A DNA stretch of 64,000 nucleotides, from IMG/VR virus record IMGVR_UViG_3300034062_005355. One strand, given 5' to 3'. The stretch comes from a virus. Lineage: Duplodnaviria > Caudoviricetes. The notes beneath the pieces were generated by a model. It did no database searches. It saw only the letters and a program-made list of their open reading frames with translations, and was not told the origin of the DNA. Both the position numbers and the translations under genes were made by a program. Positions 3,212 to 47,315 of this stretch are shown here, piece by piece (the stretch's first letter is position 1; each line of letters starts with the position of its first letter).

Positions 3212-3988
3212 ATGGCGAGAAAAAAGAAAATGTCATTTAAATTGAATCCTGAGTGGATGTTAAAAGAACCATTGGATTTTGAATACAACAAGTACACCTT
3301 GTTGGACTATATACAGAAATGCGAAAAAAGCCTTGATAGGTTTGAAATATATCCTGATTTTATTGAATTGTCATTACACTTGGCAAACATGCAATCGTTA
3401 ACAAAAGAACATACCTTATTATTAACGAACAAGAAGTTCGAGTCATGTGATGATGAAATCATGTTGAAAGACTTATACCCAAAAAAACCTCGCCAACTTT
3501 CCGAAGAAGAAGAAAATGAGTTAACCAAAACAATTCAATATTCAAATAACAAATTATACGACACCTTTAATTTTGCCAAATCAATATGGAACTTAGCGTT
3601 TGATAGTGTTGAAATTTCTTTAAAAAAGAACAAAGGTTTTTTATCCTCAGGAATTGGTTATGTGTTCTATTACAGAAAAAAAGAAAACAAAGTATTTGTT
3701 TGGGAGTATCAAATAAAAAGAGACCGAAAACAACCAAATAGTAATAAAACAACTCTTAATTTAATATATGGGAATTCACCTGAAGACATAACATTATCTT
3801 CAATAATTGAAACCAATTCATCATTTGTTAAATCTAAAAATTATAAGACATTCCCTGTATTTGAAATGCAGTGTAATCAAGACTTTCCAATGGAACAGAC
3901 AATAGTTCCAATAATGAAAAGAAAAGTTATAGCATACATTTTTCAAATTCTTAATATTAGTAAAATAAAAAATTTTGACTCTGAGTAA
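3212..3988 (+). CDS. hypothetical protein
   Basis: 258-aa ORF, co-directional with neighbours. Confidence 0.7.
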   Translation: MARKKKMSFKLNPEWMLKEPLDFEYNKYTLLDYIQKCEKSLDRFEIYPDFIELSLHLANMQSLTKEHTLLLTNKKFESCDDEIMLKDLYPKKPRQLSEEEENELTKTIQYSNNKLYDTFNFAKSIWNLAFDSVEISLKKNKGFLSSGIGYVFYYRKKENKVFVWEYQIKRDRKQPNSNKTTLNLIYGNSPEDITLSSIIETNSSFVKSKNYKTFPVFEMQCNQDFPMEQTIVPIMKRKVIAYIFQILNISKIKNFDSE

Positions 3989-4626: not shown

Positions 4627-5486
4627 GAGAATTAGAAAATATTATTAACACCATAATCAATGGGGATTCCGTACAAGTTATGAAAGAAATTCCCGAATCG
4701 ACAATTGATTTGATAGTTACAAGCCCAAAATATAATGTGGGTATTGATTATGATAGTTGTGATGATAGGATGCCAATGTCTGATTATTGGGAATGGACAA
4801 AAGAATGGTTAACTGAATCTTTCCGACTTTTAAAGGATGATGGTAGGGTTGCTATAAACATTCCCTACGAAGTTAATGTTCAAGATAGAGGAGGTAGGGT
4901 TTTATTTATGGCTGAGTTTTGGTCAGTGATGAAATCTGTCGGGTTCCAATTCTATGGGTTAGTTGACCTTGATGAGAACTCACCACACAGAAGTAAGACT
5001 ACAGCTTGGGGTTCATGGATGTCACCAAGTAGCCCATACATTTATAACCCAAAAGAATGTGTAATATTAGCCTATAAGAAAGACCGTATTAAAAAAGTTA
5101 AAGGTGAACCACAATGGAAAGCTGAAATGGTTGATATGGAACAAGAAGATGGTACTGTAAAAACTAAAGCGGTTTATCAAGAAGAAGACAAGAAAGAATT
5201 TATGTCTTTGGTTTATGGTCAGTGGGAATATTTTGCGGACACAAAACAACAAACCAAAGCCACATTTTCAATGGATGTTCCAATAAAGGCCATTAAGATT
5301 CTTACTTATAAAAATGATATTGTTCTCGACCCATTCGCTGGCAGCGGAACTAGTTTGGTTGCTGCGGAAACCTTGGGTCGTAGATGGATTGGAATCGAAC
5401 TGAGTGAAAACTATACCAAAGTTGGACAAGAAAGGGTACAACATTTTATTGATTTAAATAAACAAACTAAAATAGAGTTTAAGTAA
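4623..5486 (+). CDS. beta-class N4/N6 DNA methyltransferase
   Basis: IVTSPKYN (motif IV) precedes VLDPFAGSGT (motif I). Confidence 0.9.
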   Translation: MRELENIINTIINGDSVQVMKEIPESTIDLIVTSPKYNVGIDYDSCDDRMPMSDYWEWTKEWLTESFRLLKDDGRVAINIPYEVNVQDRGGRVLFMAEFWSVMKSVGFQFYGLVDLDENSPHRSKTTAWGSWMSPSSPYIYNPKECVILAYKKDRIKKVKGEPQWKAEMVDMEQEDGTVKTKAVYQEEDKKEFMSLVYGQWEYFADTKQQTKATFSMDVPIKAIKILTYKNDIVLDPFAGSGTSLVAAETLGRRWIGIELSENYTKVGQERVQHFIDLNKQTKIEFK

Positions 5487-25708: not shown

Positions 25709-26933
25709 ATGAATAAAGTAATTAACCGATTAATTAATGATGCAACCCAAGGAGTCGATACATATAAAACCAAAGACTCGACATGGCTTATATTTACGGA
25801 AAGTAAAAGATGGGTAATCGAACTCACAAAGGGAGGTACTCTATGGTATAATTATAATTTTTTTCAAGGAATATTGGTATACCTTTCAATGGATGTTATT
25901 GAAAATCAACACTATATTACCAAATGGGTTGAAGATAATGTTATAACTGGGGTGAAACGTATTAATGAGGACTACTCCGAAAATATTGAATTTGTTGAAC
26001 ACACCATTCAAAATGGGGTGAAAGACACCTATTCCAATTATGGTATTGGTATTTTTAGCGCTGATAAAGAAATAGTTGAACACACAATTCAAAATGGGGT
26101 GAAAGACATCCGAGTTTCAACTTATCAAAATACGTTTGCAGTTGAACACATCATTCAAAATGGGGTGAAAGACACCGAAGTCGAAAATTTCGACTTCATT
26201 AAAAGCGTTGAAGATACCATTCAAAATGGGGTAAAACATACCGAATATGGTGATTGGTTAGATGGTGATGAGAGATTTGATGATATCATTCAAAATGGGG
26301 TTAAAAAAACCCTAAGTGTGGAAGAAGGAACATTTACTTCTATTGGTTTTGGTGCTCACGTTGAAGACACATTACAAAATGGGGTAAAATATGTTGGCGG
26401 AATAGGTAATCCAAAGTGGGTTGGGAAAAAAGTTGAAGACACCATTCAAAATGGGGTTAAAGAAACAAAAATTGGTGCGCCTGATAATCGTGATTATTTT
26501 ATTGAAGACGCCATTCAAAATGGTGTTAAACACACTGAAGCTGGTGGTTACTTAGGTTCTATAGAAATGAAAGGTAAAATAGTTCACCAACTTGAATCTC
26601 CAAAACAAAATGAGGAAGTTGAATATGTTATAGAAAATGGGGGTTAAACACACTATTTGTTCAAGTGCACCGTTTGTTTATGGTGTTAAAGATACTTTAC
26701 AACACGGCGTGAAAGAAACTTTTGATAAAACTCATCATAGAAGACGAGAAGTTGTCCGAACTATAAGAGATGGAATTAAAGAAACTTATGACGATACTTA
26801 TCACCATAAAAGTAGGGTTGATGGTGTAATTAAAAATGGGATTAAACAAACCTGTGCTCAGATACCATCAATTCAACCTGTGGTAGAAAGAATACTTGAA
26901 GAAGGTATAATTCAGGACTCACAAGATTGTTAG
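25709..26933 (+). CDS. repeat-array protein, one gene split by a +1 G near 26640 (ORFs 25709-26647 and 26637-26933)
   Basis: VEDTIQNGVKHT-type units continue across the break; the 9th repeat has 5 G instead of 4. Confidence 0.75.
25928..26918 (+). CRISPR. CRISPR-like array of 14 degenerate 36-nt repeats, in frame inside a coding sequence
   Basis: Best copy GTTGAACACACCATTCAAAATGGGGTGAAAGACACC; spacers 30,45,30,30,33,48,36,33,81,30,30,30,30 nt. Confidence 0.55.
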
Positions 26934-27745: not shown

Positions 27746-28231
27746 TTATAAATATACCTCAGCTCCAATATTAACCATCGATCTAATTTCTTCTTCGGTG
27801 TATTTTTTGGAGATTGGAGTTTCTCTCAACCACAAATCAAGACCAACTGATTTAAGGTTTCCAAGAGATTTAATCGGAGTTCCCTCTAAATACAACTTAC
27901 TTCCAACCGACTCAAGATCTCCAAGAGATTCAATTGAAGAATTATCCAAATCAAGATAACCTCCAACCGATTTAAGGTTTCCAAGAGATTTAATTTGTGA
28001 TGCGACCAAAGTCAAATTACCTTCGACCGATTCAAGGTTTCCGAGAGATTCAATCGAAGATTTTGCCAAATACAAATCACCGCTTATTCTATAAGGAGGA
28101 TTATTTCTTTTTTTCAAAAATGATTGTAACATCTTCCATTCATTAAAATGAGCATAAGGAATTGTTAGGATTTCTTCTTCTTCCTGTTCGGATATTAACT
28201 TATATTGTCTCTCGGTTATGATGTATTTCAT
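27746..28231 (-). CDS. IITE-leader leucine-rich-repeat-like protein
   Basis: 20-aa SLGNLESVGGxLxL repeats; paralog of 40201-40659. Confidence 0.8.
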   Translation of the reverse strand: MKYIITERQYKLISEQEEEEILTIPYAHFNEWKMLQSFLKKRNNPPYRISGDLYLAKSSIESLGNLESVEGNLTLVASQIKSLGNLKSVGGYLDLDNSSIESLGDLESVGSKLYLEGTPIKSLGNLKSVGLDLWLRETPISKKYTEEEIRSMVNIGAEVYL

Positions 28232-28279
28232 ATTTTATATATCCTTAACAAAAGTTAAATAAGCTGCAATTTCATTTTC

Positions 28280-28315
28280 GGTGTTTATAACCTTCAAATT
28301 GAATCTATCTTCAAC
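28280..28315 (-). repeat. solitary 36-nt CRISPR-like repeat
   Basis: Minus strand GTTGAAGATAGATTCAATTTGAAGGTTATAAACACC; 2 mismatches to the 44072 repeat; flanks unrelated. Confidence 0.85.
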
Positions 28316-39677: not shown

Positions 39678-40200
39678 TGTCATGCGGACAACTCGTTTCC
39701 ATCAGGTTTAAGTCTATAATCATCAATATTCCTTGTTGCTGACAAAAGCAAATCCATTGCTTGGGCATAGTAGTTTGCTTTAATTCTTATCTCAATATTT
39801 GAGTTTAAGATGTTTTCAAAAATATATTCTTTCATTTTGTATTTTCCGAAGTTTTGTTTAACCAATCATTTATTTCTTTGATGTTCTATTTTTGTTTCAA
39901 TTCAAGTAAATCTTTTTCAAGTTGTTTTATGATTCTCTCCACCAAATAACTAATTTGTTCCATTCTGCTTCCTTCACCTTCATAGTAAGTAAATCCATGG
40001 TTTGTTAATGGATGGTATAACTTCCTAATCTCATTTAGTGCGGTTGCCTTTTTTTGTAATATAACTTGCTCTCGTGTCATAATCAGTAAATTTTATTTTT
40101 AACAAAGGTATATATAAATTCGACATATCCAAATAAAAACCAACCTTTTTTTATTTAAAATAATTCATTATCTTTGTTGGGTTATCCTAAAAATAATGTT

Positions 40201-40659
40201 ATGGAAAAAATTTTAATTGATATTGAAGAAGAAATTTTAACAATTCCTTATGCCCATTTTGAAGACTGGGATATGTTGCAAGTATTCTTGAAAAGAAGAA
40301 AAAATCCTCCTTATAGAATAAGTGATAATTTGGATTTGGCAGGATCTTCGGTTGAATCTCTTGGAAACCTTGAATCGGTTGGTGGGTGGTTGAGTTTGGA
40401 GAAAACTAATATTAAATCTCTTGGAAATCTTGAATCGGTTGGAGGTAGTTTGTTTTTGTGTGATTCTTCAATTAAATCTCTTGGAAACCTTGAATCGGTT
40501 GGAGGTAACTTGGATTTGAGAGGAACTTCAATTAAATCTCTTGGAAACCTTGAATCTGTTGGAGGTAGTTTGTATTTGTATAGAACTCCAATCTCCAAAA
40601 AATATACCAGAGAAGAAATTAGATCGATGGTTAATCTTGGAGGTGATGTATATTTGTAG
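40201..40659 (+). CDS. LRR-like protein without the IITE leader
   Basis: Four SLGNLESVGG repeats; body closely matches 27746-28231. Confidence 0.8.
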   Translation: MEKILIDIEEEILTIPYAHFEDWDMLQVFLKRRKNPPYRISDNLDLAGSSVESLGNLESVGGWLSLEKTNIKSLGNLESVGGSLFLCDSSIKSLGNLESVGGNLDLRGTSIKSLGNLESVGGSLYLYRTPISKKYTREEIRSMVNLGGDVYL

Positions 40660-43490: not shown

Positions 43491-43826
43491 ATGCCGCCAA
43501 GAAGACGAAGATTATTAAAATATATTATGGATAAAGAAGAAGTAGAAAACGCAATTAATAAATTAATGTCATTAATTAAACCTGATGAGGTTACGGAAGT
43601 TGCGTTTGAATTACCACACTCATCACCAGATTCATTTACAATGAATGTGGTTTTTGTTGTACCTGATGAGTGGATTAAATCTATGGATGAATATGAACGT
43701 CCTTTGGCTCTTATCCATTTTGTTCAACATATAAGAAAACAAATTAAAAATTATTTGGGAATTAATATTGTTATTCCAAAAGGTGACAGTAGAATTGTTA
43801 AAGAAAGTGATTGGTATAAAATATGA
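43491..43826 (+). CDS. hypothetical protein
   Basis: 111-aa ORF within the cassette run. Confidence 0.65.
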   Translation: MPPRRRRLLKYIMDKEEVENAINKLMSLIKPDEVTEVAFELPHSSPDSFTMNVVFVVPDEWIKSMDEYERPLALIHFVQHIRKQIKNYLGINIVIPKGDSRIVKESDWYKI

Positions 43827-44143
43827 AATACATTATAACAGAAAATAGATTAAACAATATTGTATTCAAATATTTGGATATGAAATATGGCGCTCTTGAA
43901 CAAAAAAAAGGAAAGTATAGTGATATTATTTTTGATTTTCCTGATGAAGAATATGGTATATTAGGATGGGAAAAATCAGGAAATTTATATGTTTTTCACA
44001 AATTAAGGGACGAAATTTCCAAATATTTTGGACTGGATAACAACGATTCCCTAAGGGTTATAGGTAAGTGGGTTGAAGATAGATACAATTTGAAGGTCAT
44101 AAACACCAATGGGCAAAGTATGTATTACCTCGCCCGTGGTTGA
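43823..44143 (+). CDS. IITE-leader protein whose 3' end runs into the CRISPR-like mini-array
   Basis: MKYIITENRL...GKW-VEDRYNLKVINT-NGQSMYYLARG*. Confidence 0.8.
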   Translation: MKYIITENRLNNIVFKYLDMKYGALEQKKGKYSDIIFDFPDEEYGILGWEKSGNLYVFHKLRDEISKYFGLDNNDSLRVIGKWVEDRYNLKVINTNGQSMYYLARG

Positions 44144-44240
44144 AGATAGATACAATTTGAAGGTCATAAACACCGTCCGGCTAGGGTTCCATCTTTGGTA
44201 ATATGTTGAAGATAGACACAATTTAAAGTTAATAATAACA
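44072..44240 (+). CRISPR. orphan CRISPR-like mini-array: three 36-nt repeats, 31- and 30-nt spacers
   Basis: GTTGAAGATAGATACAATTTGAAGGTCATAAACACC identical at 44072 and 44139, degenerate at 44205; spacers unique and GC-richer than flanks. Confidence 0.7.
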
Positions 44241-44596
44241 TGAAATACATAATAACAGAAAGTAAAATTAACAAATTTGTATCCAATTATTTGGATGGAC
44301 AAAAATGGTATACATGGGATATTGGAGATGGTGAATTTAATGTTGCCGATGAAGAATATGGAAAAGACATTATTCATTATAGAATCCAAGAATCAATTAC
44401 GGTTCCTGACCGTATGTTTGATTTAATTTATGTTGATGGTATGTTTGTTACAAGGTTATCCAAATTATTTGGTTTGGAGGCTGTTAGGGATGTTAATCCG
44501 TTAGTTGTTAATTGGTTTAATAAAAAATATAATAAAAACTTAAACAAAGACGATTGGGAGTGGATGGATGAAGAAGATGAAGAAGAAGATTTTTAA
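44240..44596 (+). CDS. IITE-leader hypothetical protein
   Basis: MKYIITESKI; ATG overlaps the last base of the third repeat. Confidence 0.8.
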   Translation: MKYIITESKINKFVSNYLDGQKWYTWDIGDGEFNVADEEYGKDIIHYRIQESITVPDRMFDLIYVDGMFVTRLSKLFGLEAVRDVNPLVVNWFNKKYNKNLNKDDWEWMDEEDEEEDF

Positions 44597-44599
44597 ACA

Positions 44600-44674
44600 A
44601 TGAAATACATTATAACAGAATCACAATATAAATTAAAAGGATGGGGGTTTTTTATTTATGGGGTATTTATGTAA
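44600..44674 (+). pseudogene. leader-only cassette remnant
   Basis: MKYIITESQYKLK runs directly into a half-terminator (tgggggttttttatt). Confidence 0.6.
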
Positions 44675-44675
44675 T

Positions 44676-45920
44676 ATGAAAGTAACGATTAGCGAAAGCC
44701 AATTTATTAGAATGGTTAATAACTCAAAAGGGTGGGGGTTAATCGGTATTAACGAGGGCGGTAAACCAAAAAATACTTTAGAATATATTAAAGACCATAG
44801 TAATGAATTAGAATTAAAATATTTAGGAACGCAAGACGAAAAACTTAGTTATGGGATGACAGACTATAATTGGTTAGATAGAAATAATAAAGAATTGCGC
44901 GACAAAATTATGTTACACCAAAAAAATAAAAAGAAGAAAAAAGAACGGGACATAATAGAAAAAAAATATTTAGGAACTATAGATGGAAACCCTATTCCAG
45001 GATATAATGTTGTTGATACACTTAAGCAGGGTTCCGAGGATTATTATTGGCTTAAATATAATGACATACCTTTACGTGATAAAATTAAAAGTACAGAATA
45101 TTCTTTACTTGGAAAAGTACCTACATCAACAAGATACGTTTCAAGTGATATTAAAGACCATAGTAATGAATTAGAATTAAAATATTTAGGAACGCAAGAC
45201 GAAAAACTTGTTCCAAACTATAAAGTTGTTGATAAACTCACATATAACACTACAGATTATAGTTGGTTATCTAATTATAACATACCATTACGTGACAAAA
45301 TTATGTTATACCAAAAAAATAAAGATATTGAAATACGTAGTAATGATTTCCTCCAAAACTATAAAAAAAATAAGGAGTTTAATTATCTTATGACGGATTA
45401 TAAGTGGTTATGGTATAATAATCCAAACTTGTTTAAAAAAATTAGATTAGATTTTATAAAAAACCACCCTGAAAAACGTAAAGAAAGTATAGGGGAAAAA
45501 AATCTTAAAGACGTATTAAATAGTATGGGATTTACAGGTTTAATTCCTCAGTATAAATATGATGATTGTAGAGGGTCAAAATCTTGTCGTCAGTATATGT
45601 TTGATATATATTTACCATATACAGGTAAAAATATAGAAATTAATGGTAATATACCAAAAAATGGAGTTTTATTTGAATTTGACGGAGAAGGACATTTTAA
45701 ATCTATTAAAAGTTGGGGGGGTGATGATGGTTTATCAGAACGTATTTATAATGATGTATCAAAAAATGAATATACCAAAACTAAAGAAATTAAATTAATT
45801 AGAATTCCATATACCTCTAATAATAAAGAGTTTATTAAGAGCCAAATTATTGATGCACTTAATAACCCTAATCAATTAGTTTTAACTGGAAATTATCCCA
45901 AACTTGGGTGGAATAAATAA
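44676..45920 (+). CDS. TISE-leader PD-(D/E)xK (DUF559/Vsr-like) endonuclease with N-terminal repeats
   Basis: ESIGEK...FDIYLP...FEFDGEGHF...D..KN...LIRIPY; 60-nt exact duplication at 44787 and 45150. Confidence 0.75.
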   Translation: MKVTISESQFIRMVNNSKGWGLIGINEGGKPKNTLEYIKDHSNELELKYLGTQDEKLSYGMTDYNWLDRNNKELRDKIMLHQKNKKKKKERDIIEKKYLGTIDGNPIPGYNVVDTLKQGSEDYYWLKYNDIPLRDKIKSTEYSLLGKVPTSTRYVSSDIKDHSNELELKYLGTQDEKLVPNYKVVDKLTYNTTDYSWLSNYNIPLRDKIMLYQKNKDIEIRSNDFLQNYKKNKEFNYLMTDYKWLWYNNPNLFKKIRLDFIKNHPEKRKESIGEKNLKDVLNSMGFTGLIPQYKYDDCRGSKSCRQYMFDIYLPYTGKNIEINGNIPKNGVLFEFDGEGHFKSIKSWGGDDGLSERIYNDVSKNEYTKTKEIKLIRIPYTSNNKEFIKSQIIDALNNPNQLVLTGNYPKLGWNK

Positions 45921-46358: not shown

Positions 46359-47315
46359 ATGGATAAAACAATTAAACTTCTTGAAGAATTTCTTAAAGAT
46401 TACACAATGGAAGGAGCCTGTGGTTTTTGGGTGCAACCTGATGAAGAAGGTGGAGTGCCGTCAGTTTATATTGTATTGGATTTAGATTGGTTGAAGGAAA
46501 CCCAAACAAAACCTGGATTTATTGAACGAAGAATGAGACAAGGACTTAAAGAAGATATTAAAAATTGGACAGGTATTGAAGTTCCTTATGTTGGTTCCAC
46601 CGCAAAAAAATGTGGTAGTCTAAATGAAAATGTGTCAACGTATCTTCGTAGAAGATTGTCTTTAGAGGGTATGAAACAAGATATTGATAATCTTGTTGAT
46701 TATGAATTAAATCCATGTGAATTTTCGGATATTGGTGATTTTGTTGCTGAAGCCTGTGATATGTTGGCGCATAACTATCTTGAAGACCTACAAGTATCAT
46801 CTAAAGATAAAGATAAGTTCTATTTTGCACTTGTTGATTTATTTGGGAAACATCTTGTGAATGTATACAAACAAAGATGTGTAGAAGGACTAATGGAATC
46901 CAAAAAGAGAATTATTGTTACAGAATCTCAATATAAGAGGATATTTGAACAGAAAAAATCAAAAGTTGAGATGTTTCAAGACTTAATAAATGATAAGTTA
47001 GAAGATATTAGAAAAGAGTGTGATGATTTGGGATTTAATTTTGAGACTTGTAATGATGTTGATATGATTGAATCTATTAAAGTTGAAGGGGTGAATATGT
47101 TAACAGGTGACAGAACGGACATGAGTGGTAATAAGTATGTTTCAGAACCATCAATATACGTTAAACTCACAATTAATTATTCAAGTATTATCCCATCAAA
47201 GGATTTTGACGAAATTATTTATGATTTAAAATGGATGTTAAAAAAATCAACAGGTGGATTACCAATTGTATTGGATTATCAAATAAATAATTTGAACACA
47301 AATAAAGAGTGGTAG
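46359..47315 (+). CDS. three-module protein with internal LNE and IIVTESQ leader-like junctions
   Basis: GSLNENV and LMESKKRIIVTESQYKRIFEQ occur internally. Confidence 0.7.
   Translation: MDKTIKLLEEFLKDYTMEGACGFWVQPDEEGGVPSVYIVLDLDWLKETQTKPGFIERRMRQGLKEDIKNWTGIEVPYVGSTAKKCGSLNENVSTYLRRRLSLEGMKQDIDNLVDYELNPCEFSDIGDFVAEACDMLAHNYLEDLQVSSKDKDKFYFALVDLFGKHLVNVYKQRCVEGLMESKKRIIVTESQYKRIFEQKKSKVEMFQDLINDKLEDIRKECDDLGFNFETCNDVDMIESIKVEGVNMLTGDRTDMSGNKYVSEPSIYVKLTINYSSIIPSKDFDEIIYDLKWMLKKSTGGLPIVLDYQINNLNTNKEW

Follow-up and report, generated by a model that had tools for sequence, protein, structure and literature searches.

When copies of a 36-nucleotide repeat, separated by short unique inserts, follow directly upon the last conserved codons of a phage gene, it has to be asked whether they form a genuine CRISPR-type array, a stretch of repetitive protein-coding sequence, or a by-product of integration that guides nothing, and, in the first case, which proteins write and read the array. 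This question is raised by a locus in a 64,000-nucleotide stretch of DNA from a caudoviricete virus (IMG/VR record IMGVR_UViG_3300034062_005355; hereafter, the window), in which a sequence-only reading had pointed out an orphan, "Cas13b-like" mini-array attached to a phage gene at its 3' end. Overall, the locus is best explained, and very probably so, as a genuine CRISPR-type array fused to a phage gene and served in trans. It is an orphan in the window, and it belongs to a pattern that extends to other huge lake phages and had so far escaped notice.

Architecture of the array

The array occupies positions 44072-44240, and the elements of the locus are the following:

43823..44143, plus strand: small phage gene in the position of a "leader" to the array; 106 aa as read, or 95 aa if counted as far as repeat 1 extends
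44072-44107, plus strand: repeat 1, 36 nt (GTTGAAGATAGATACAATTTGAAGGTCATAAACACC), coding for VEDRYNLKVINT
44108-44138, plus strand: spacer 1, 31 nt, translated as an 11-residue tail
44139-44174, plus strand: repeat 2, an exact 36-nt copy of repeat 1, with a GTTGA that gives the stop codon of the ORF
44175-44204, plus strand: spacer 2, 30 nt
44205-44240, plus strand: decayed terminal repeat, 28/36 identical (78%) to the repeat
44240..44596, plus strand: second member of the protein family, a paralogue that lies downstream and has no array (...NWFNKKYN...)

The two identical repeats, the degenerate third copy and the spacer lengths are thus confirmed as they had been read, and the arrangement is that of CRISPR arrays in general, with at least two near-identical direct repeats of 23-50 nt and unique spacers of similar length. 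In 100 dinucleotide shuffles of the window, the 36-nt repeat is never matched at three or fewer mismatches; at the array locus, Rfam reveals neither a CRISPR-DR nor any other family. Repeat 1 is in frame with the ORF 43823-44143 (...GKW|VEDRYNLKVINT), which crosses spacer 1 and ends at the TGA at 44141-44143, formed from G+GTTGA at the start of repeat 2, and a stop is likewise present in spacer 2 in this frame. The decayed repeat translates as VEDRHNLKLIIT*, with a stop codon that shares sequence with the start codon (ATG) of the following gene (44240). The spacers had also been described as close to half GC and unlike their flanks, and they indeed have 47-48% GC compared with about 30% for the phage. 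On the minus strand, spacer 1 contains a 10-pair terminator-like hairpin (44111-44135), and its source may be a terminator.

Missing from the earlier description was a fourth copy of the repeat, on the minus strand at 28315-28280, which is accompanied by two further elements:

28280-28315, minus strand: solitary repeat copy with 2 mismatches, intergenic
28279-28250, minus strand: unique AT-rich stretch of 30 nt that follows the solitary copy
28249-28214, minus strand: decayed repeat, 69% identical, overlapping the ATG of ORF 27746-28231 (minus strand)

Together, these elements (28214-28315) are a one-spacer mini-array, whose unique stretch is present as a single copy, no second one having been found. 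Since the solitary copy is intergenic, the repeat unit exists outside a coding context too. The ORF 27746-28231 and another one at 40174-40656 (plus strand) contain leucine-rich-repeat-like units (SLGNLESVGG...) and begin with a MKYIITE motif, as do many genes of the window.

The array-linked gene and its protein family

The family to which the array-linked gene belongs is represented by 44 loci in IMG/VR. Its residue Trp83 is invariant, both in 11 orthologues and in a 20-member family alignment, and the segment behind this residue is conserved in array-less members as well; in the gene of the window, repeat 1 constitutes the last 12 conserved codons. AlphaFold2 predicts a confident alpha/beta fold for the array-linked protein (pLDDT 89.4), with a last helix (residues 73-88) that extends into the repeat-encoded residues. 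Judging by the conservation behind the Trp and by this confidently predicted helix, repeat 1 is real coding sequence. The fold has no match in the PDB and, in the AFDB, matches to uncharacterised proteins only; a Cas2-like nature of the protein was considered and rejected by fold comparison. Between the window and the related genome G001, the DNA of gene and array is 81% identical, although the two otherwise share only five proteins, with 27-74% identity.

A true in-frame coding repeat of 12 residues occurs in a paralogue, ORF 25709-26647. This coding repeat (25928-26918, plus strand) is made up of VEDTIQNGVKHT-type units, joined by stop-free linkers whose lengths are divisible by three, and its copies differ at the nucleotide level, unlike the repeats of the array. 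The first 21 nt of one unit match the reverse-complemented VI-B repeat of Flavobacterium columnare at 19/21 positions in a hand alignment, and its minus-strand copies are the best matches of the window to that repeat (score 24 of 36).

Orthologous arrays and spacer turnover

In repeat scans, which returned three contigs in IMG/VR (L003/L004 and L005) and seven in metagenomes (L047-L053), the orthologous gene and an array starting at the same Trp codon were found on 10 other lake-metagenome contigs, on all of which the array begins directly after ...GGTAAGTGG of the gene. A comparison of repeat number in relatives had been proposed, and it shows that the arrays contain one to five spacers of 28-32 nt each and differ in content. 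All gene-proximal spacers are unique. The only spacer common to L003, L005 and L051 is the last, distal one, and another last spacer is the only one in common among both arrays of L048 and those of L049, L052 and L053. In two lineages, comprising three and five arrays, the spacers therefore differ at the leader end, with a decayed repeat at the other end, as is characteristic of CRISPR arrays, and since only the distal spacer is shared within a lineage, spacers are evidently added at the gene-proximal end. The leader-trailer polarity previously deduced from the distal position of the degenerate copy is in keeping with this pattern. So is the view that the inserts were captured rather than selected as peptides, relatives holding different spacers at the same site and none of these being conserved among them as alternative C-termini. 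The accompanying suggestion that the capture was recent holds at the evolutionary scale but not over the years covered by sampling, given that the array did not change from 2016 to 2024: the junction of repeat 1, spacer 1 and repeat 2 is unchanged in lake metagenomes of 2016, 2020, 2023 and 2024, as followed on Logan contigs, which cannot reveal rare spacer gains.

Some of these contigs also document other kinds of rearrangement. In L048 (1-1080, minus strand), the whole unit of gene and array is duplicated in tandem, and the copies have the same distal spacer and have gained one and four different proximal spacers; one of them carries an A-to-C exchange in all five repeats, which turns Asn into His in the protein. 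At the array end of L047 (1590-1620, minus-strand view), a truncated repeat has lost the segment between two internal TTGAAG words, which suggests slippage or recombination inside the repeat. A constant length of 31 nt for the first spacer, by which the ORF would stop at the TGA of repeat 2, was considered; it fits three arrays and was abandoned, as it failed on L047, L048, L051 and L052; when first spacers were compared with older ones, stop-free frames were not enriched.

Diverged repeats at the same junction

In about one third of the family loci, an array starts at the homologous Trp codon with other repeat sequences. The loci concerned and their array regions are as follows:

L032-34, L037, L041, L043: array at the homologous Trp codon, diverged repeats
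L007, L011: array at the homologous Trp codon, diverged repeats
L026, L046: array at the homologous Trp codon, diverged repeats
G408, arrays A, C and D: array at the homologous Trp codon, diverged repeats
L032: array regions 3261-3460 and 4655-4760
L037: array regions 3261-3400 and 5103-5270
L043:3255-3430, L041:3261-3400 and L007:3253-3350: fused array regions
G408: fused-array regions 274.83-275.0, 305.5-305.8 and 308.09-308.4 kb

The second arrays of L032 and L037 have a different repeat type and are likewise fused after a Trp codon, and G408 harbours at least five arrays, of which four follow the Trp codons of family genes as fusions and the fifth is free-standing. Family arrays are found at the same codon down to about 30% protein identity, with repeats that are intact and homogeneous. 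Gene and repeat have diverged jointly, into at least four repeat families, while the junction behind the Trp has been retained. At least two repeat types coexist per phage in L032, L037 and G408, which is awkward for a single repeat-specific effector.

The phage and its host

The window has a GC content of about 30% and encodes homing endonucleases, a methylase, SmpB and a 1615-aa protein with a type IX secretion CHU_C domain; genes for gp23, gp20, gp32, gp25, a tail sheath, PolB and SprB repeats are found in relatives. As estimated by CheckV, G001 (102 kb) is 33% and G408 (309 kb) 100% complete. The window phage is a T4-like huge lake phage, and its host probably belongs to the Bacteroidota, to which the predicted T9SS CHU_C and SprB domains are the clue. 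About 420 nt downstream of the array, with one gene between, the ORF 44658-45920 (plus strand) encodes a 420-aa HNH/homing-endonuclease-like protein and contains internal DNA repeats of 62-93 nt.

Affinities of the repeat

The arrays of Flavobacterium type VI-B systems, of which two published repeats served as references, offer a comparison by which the label "Cas13b-like" can be judged. Like them (PMC5395568, Table 4), the array of the window combines 36-nt repeats with spacers of about 30 nt (29-31 nt in Flavobacterium), and its repeat shares the GTTG start, the ATTTGAAGG core and the ACA[AC]C end; moreover, the variable end lies upstream with respect to transcription and adaptation genes are absent in cis (PMC8092290). 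In F. columnare, the VI-B array, which lacks cas1/2, is transcribed from its variable end and is fed in trans by the Cas1-Cas2 of a II-C system (PMC8092290). On the other hand, VI-B repeats typically have GTTG...CAAC termini and an internal hairpin of the CCCTT/AAGGG type, and the repeat of the window ends in CACC rather than CAAC and lacks the two-stem hairpin, folding at -0.6 kcal/mol (z +1.1) compared with -10.9 and -12.2 for the two Flavobacterium repeats; the sequence-only reading had itself called the internal stem weak. A covariance model built from the two VI-B repeats only (R1) yields no match in the window at E <= 10, its best phage match being L032 at E = 0.3. The "leader" of the window array is, in addition, a coding gene, and cas13b was found neither in the phages nor in the sampled genomes.

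Sister repeats are closer to type VI-B. Those of L043 and L032 retain a weak distal stem (-6.8 and -4.4), and L043-type repeats score 15-17 against VI-B repeats, above all of about 330,000 background positions, compared with at most 2.5 against II-C and V-A repeats; the VI-B score of the window repeat equals the background maximum. When reverse-complemented, the window repeat is similar to the initial 30 nt of the II-C repeats of two MAGs from Bacteroidota (scores 11-13, p ~3e-4), about as well as it resembles VI-B. The label "Cas13b-like" is therefore reduced to a resemblance. The window repeat belongs to a loose superfamily with the consensus G[TG]TG..ATT(T)GAA[AG]G..ACA[AC]C, which includes the Flavobacterium VI-B repeats and also the TnpB-associated repeats described below. 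In one-spacer arrays, the sole intact repeat is the one upstream of the spacer. This arrangement suits a type V-like guide, in which the repeat precedes the spacer, or an antisense II-C guide better than it suits a VI-B guide.

Searches for cas genes, host arrays and targets

That the locus is an orphan mini-array, fused to a phage gene at its 3' terminus, was borne out, cas genes not having been found nearby. Pfam detects no Cas domain in the 95 ORFs of the window, and no Cas among the 25 families listed for the 76 ORFs of G001; among the 25 of 70 families listed by PADLOC for the window, no cas family appears. Models of Cas1, Cas9, Cas13b and Cas13d have no counterpart in five phage records, which include the complete G408, the sole match of this search being an HNH domain (27 bits). 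A Cas_Csn2 assignment for the ORF 46359-47315 (Pfam E 7e-4, below the cut-off) was discarded as noise, as neither PADLOC nor PDB sequences support it. With respect to Cas13b, the model NF038190 matched none of the five phage records and none of 401 sampled genomes (the order of a Crocinitomicaceae MAG), in a search in which no positive control gave a signal; NF038188 and NF038189, also tried as Cas13b models, proved to represent Cas13a and Cas13d.

On the host side, no array with the window repeat is present in 185,579 species genomes, searched with the full pattern and with its 3' half, and a loose VI-B-like pattern gave background counts only in the 401 genomes. A metagenome scan with the repeat returned phage-gene-linked copies only, and the true host may be missing from the searched genome collections.

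A search for the protospacers of both window spacers had also been recommended, and none was found in the collections searched: neither spacer 1 nor spacer 2 has another copy in the window, in related loci, in IMG/VR (scanned with spacer cores, 23 nt for spacer 1) or in INPHARED. The same is true more widely, as about 50 spacers have no protospacer beyond chance in local loci, IMG/VR core scans (22-23-nt cores of four spacers) and INPHARED (blastn with two array regions). Partial spacer matches of 19-22 nt remain at the level of shuffled controls, and cross-matches among the window, G001, G002, G408 and 180 loci do not exceed chance. In the complete genome of G408, its 15 spacers match only themselves. 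The spacers are foreign to the phage, a statement whose whole-genome basis is the spacers of this complete relative only. They average 36% GC and are not skewed towards one strand, so that nothing indicates selection for RNA targeting.

A TnpB/Cas12f-like module in relatives

The free-standing array of G408 belongs to a module with a nuclease-like gene:

L167:11974-13783, equal to G408 291.97-293.78 kb, minus strand: TnpB/Cas12f-like gene and free-standing array

The array, with a 36-nt repeat of the form GTTG...CAAC, lies about 200 nt downstream of the ORF, which matches Pfam Cas12f1-like_TNB at 2.5e-20 and has seemingly intact RuvC and zinc-finger motifs. Homologues of about 400 aa (L169-L183; 50-98% identity) are always followed by an array 215-310 nt downstream and by a conserved trailer, composed of an A-run and a terminator. 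A GC-rich, structured-looking non-coding stretch separates gene and array, the spacers are variable and 29-30 nt long, and their content varies between near-identical loci. TnpB is an RNA-guided nuclease (PMC8612924), from which Cas12 is thought to be derived (PMC10097598), and the module has the look of a small type V-like system that is carried by phages and has no adaptation genes.

The repeats of this module reach 75% identity with a VI-B repeat. Thus, VI-B-like repeats adjoin a TnpB-like gene of about 400 codons, repeat style does not imply Cas13b, and repeat likeness alone does not identify the effector. As arrays of the same superfamily adjoin the TnpB/Cas12f-like gene in relatives, a phage effector is at least as plausible as a host Cas13b or Cas9. 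A homologue of this nuclease is absent from the window (Pfam, tblastn), G001 and G002, and a profile of the TnpB-associated repeat (model R2) does not list the window copies at E <= 1, whereas L003-type copies reach 8.7-9.6 bits (E 0.4-0.8). For these two reasons, we can only infer a tie between the fused arrays and the TnpB-like nuclease, namely from their co-occurrence in one complete genome. An R2 match at 40498-40523 of the window was rejected as a repeat unit, being leucine-rich-repeat coding sequence.

Proposed mechanism and alternative explanations

If the locus is a genuine array served in trans, new spacers would integrate at the gene-repeat junction through a Cas1-Cas2 integrase acting in trans, the likeliest source of which would be a type II-C module of the host. 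The phage arrays share the polarity of the F. columnare VI-B array relative to the gene, which makes a trans-acting II-C-type integrase the best candidate, and since spacers turn over while no adaptation genes were found in the complete 309-kb genome, trans-acting integrases seem to write into phage DNA during infection. Each integration would duplicate the 36-nt repeat, so that the protein would retain its 95 residues and the short tail alone would change. The array would be transcribed together with the gene, as its 3' UTR, and the guides would go to an effector encoded elsewhere, likely for use in competition with other phages or in interference with host defence. As to this effector, a phage TnpB/Cas12f-like nuclease of the kind that adjoins the arrays of relatives is possible and is proposed tentatively; host Cas13b is rather unlikely, and host Cas9 (II-C, with an antisense transcript) quite unlikely. 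That no guide function exists, and that the array instead diverts Cas proteins or the integrase as a decoy or is simply a by-product that the phage tolerates, seems somewhat unlikely.

This last idea can be extended to an explanation of the locus as a whole, in which the 3' end of this gene family resembles the leader-repeat junction of a host array, a host integrase occasionally inserts spacers there, and no useful guides result. At most, the arrays would sequester Cas proteins or integrase loaded with prespacers, in the manner of an RNA anti-CRISPR or of a sink for integration. It would account for the failure to find cas genes in cis or protospacers, for the unbiased strands of the spacers, for a window repeat that is unstructured and fails the models of both VI-B and TnpB-associated repeats, and for the several repeat types per genome; insertion after repeat 1, moreover, spares the protein and would therefore be nearly neutral, and solitary repeat units are known to act as RNA anti-CRISPRs (PMC10651486). 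However, mere tolerance sits poorly with the retention of arrays at one and the same codon in family members whose proteins are only about 30% identical, the repeats being intact and homogeneous and the spacers numbering up to five. It sits no better with a module of gene and array that is far better conserved than the genomes around it, with an array that has been stable for eight years, and with free-standing arrays of the same superfamily that are tied, in relatives, to an apparently intact RNA-guided nuclease gene. On balance, we consider this explanation unlikely. A little less probable in our view is a mini-array for a host Cas13b, as the sequence-only reading had suggested; this Cas13b would process the spacer-repeat units in the transcript of the gene and use them against the RNAs of competitors. 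Repeat and spacer lengths match published Flavobacterium VI-B arrays, the L043-type sister repeats have the VI-B scores given above, the strand of similarity, the variable end and the direction of the gene agree with VI-B leader-to-array transcription, and VI-B loci without cas1/2 do adapt in trans (PMC8092290). Yet the window repeat has neither the hairpin nor the expected end and is missed by the VI-B covariance model, which finds even its best phage match at E = 0.3 only; cas13b was found in none of the 401 sampled genomes and none of the five phage records (again, with no positive control giving a signal); the intact repeat of one-spacer arrays is on the wrong side for a spacer-then-repeat crRNA; VI-B-like repeats adjoin a TnpB-like gene; and the collateral RNase activity would be expected to hurt the phage too.

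Two further explanations take the coding nature of repeat 1 as their starting point. An ordinary protein-coding tandem repeat (or, alternatively, a chimeric assembly) is suggested by this coding repeat and by the paralogue ORF 25709-26647 with its true in-frame repeat, but spacers of 28-32 nt that are not multiples of three, frames that break and stop, and array repeats that are nucleotide-identical, unlike those of the coding paralogue, rule out a protein repeat, and the same junctions recur in independent assemblies from several studies and years; this explanation is scarcely conceivable. It is very unlikely, though less so, that spacer insertion is specific to the 3' ends of one family, each event rewriting the C-terminal tail, with in-frame, stop-free inserts kept as peptide cassettes (for instance, in ORF 25709-26647). 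If true, CRISPR-type adaptation would build or diversify protein sequence, or the CRISPR repeats of this superfamily would have arisen from coding sequence. The phage would then possess an autonomous system, made up of its arrays, the TnpB-like effector and an integrase that has escaped recognition.

Relation to known systems

Returning to the array served in trans, one parallel to it is the ectopic, or "neo-CRISPR", integration of spacers at repeat-like sites reportedly described by Nivala et al. in 2018. In both, spacers enter a sequence that resembles a repeat but does not belong to a canonical CRISPR-cas locus, and the repeat is duplicated; neo-CRISPR formation is, however, a rare laboratory event, whereas here the site is conserved, reused in many phage lineages and kept for years. 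Among natural systems, CasPhi and Cas-lambda are compact type V systems of huge phages, to which the relatives correspond in their nuclease gene of about 400 aa, their array of 36-nt repeats and their lack of adaptation genes. The window differs from these in that the nuclease gene is absent and its repeat is unrecognised by the profile. Taken together, the evidence suggests that the CRISPR system of huge Bacteroidota phages is distributed and, in part, borrowed.

Viral mini-CRISPR arrays without cas genes are already known (PMC11656645). They are short, have few spacers, are presumed to depend on Cas proteins in trans and may be accompanied by a solitary repeat elsewhere, in all of which the window agrees with them (its solitary repeat being that at 28280-28315). 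These known arrays have exactly the repeat of an array in the host, and the majority of their spacers match related viruses (PMC11656645), whereas for the window neither a host array nor a target was found. Further differences are that the first repeat lies inside a protein-coding gene, that the junction is conserved family-wide, with repeats diverging along with the gene, and that up to five spacers, a polarised turnover and at least five arrays in one genome are observed. What is unusual here is the overlap of an array with real coding sequence that is predicted to be folded, the attachment of the same repeat superfamily to a TnpB/Cas12f-like nuclease in relatives, and a record of spacer turnover in phage genomes that is clear across several lakes and years.
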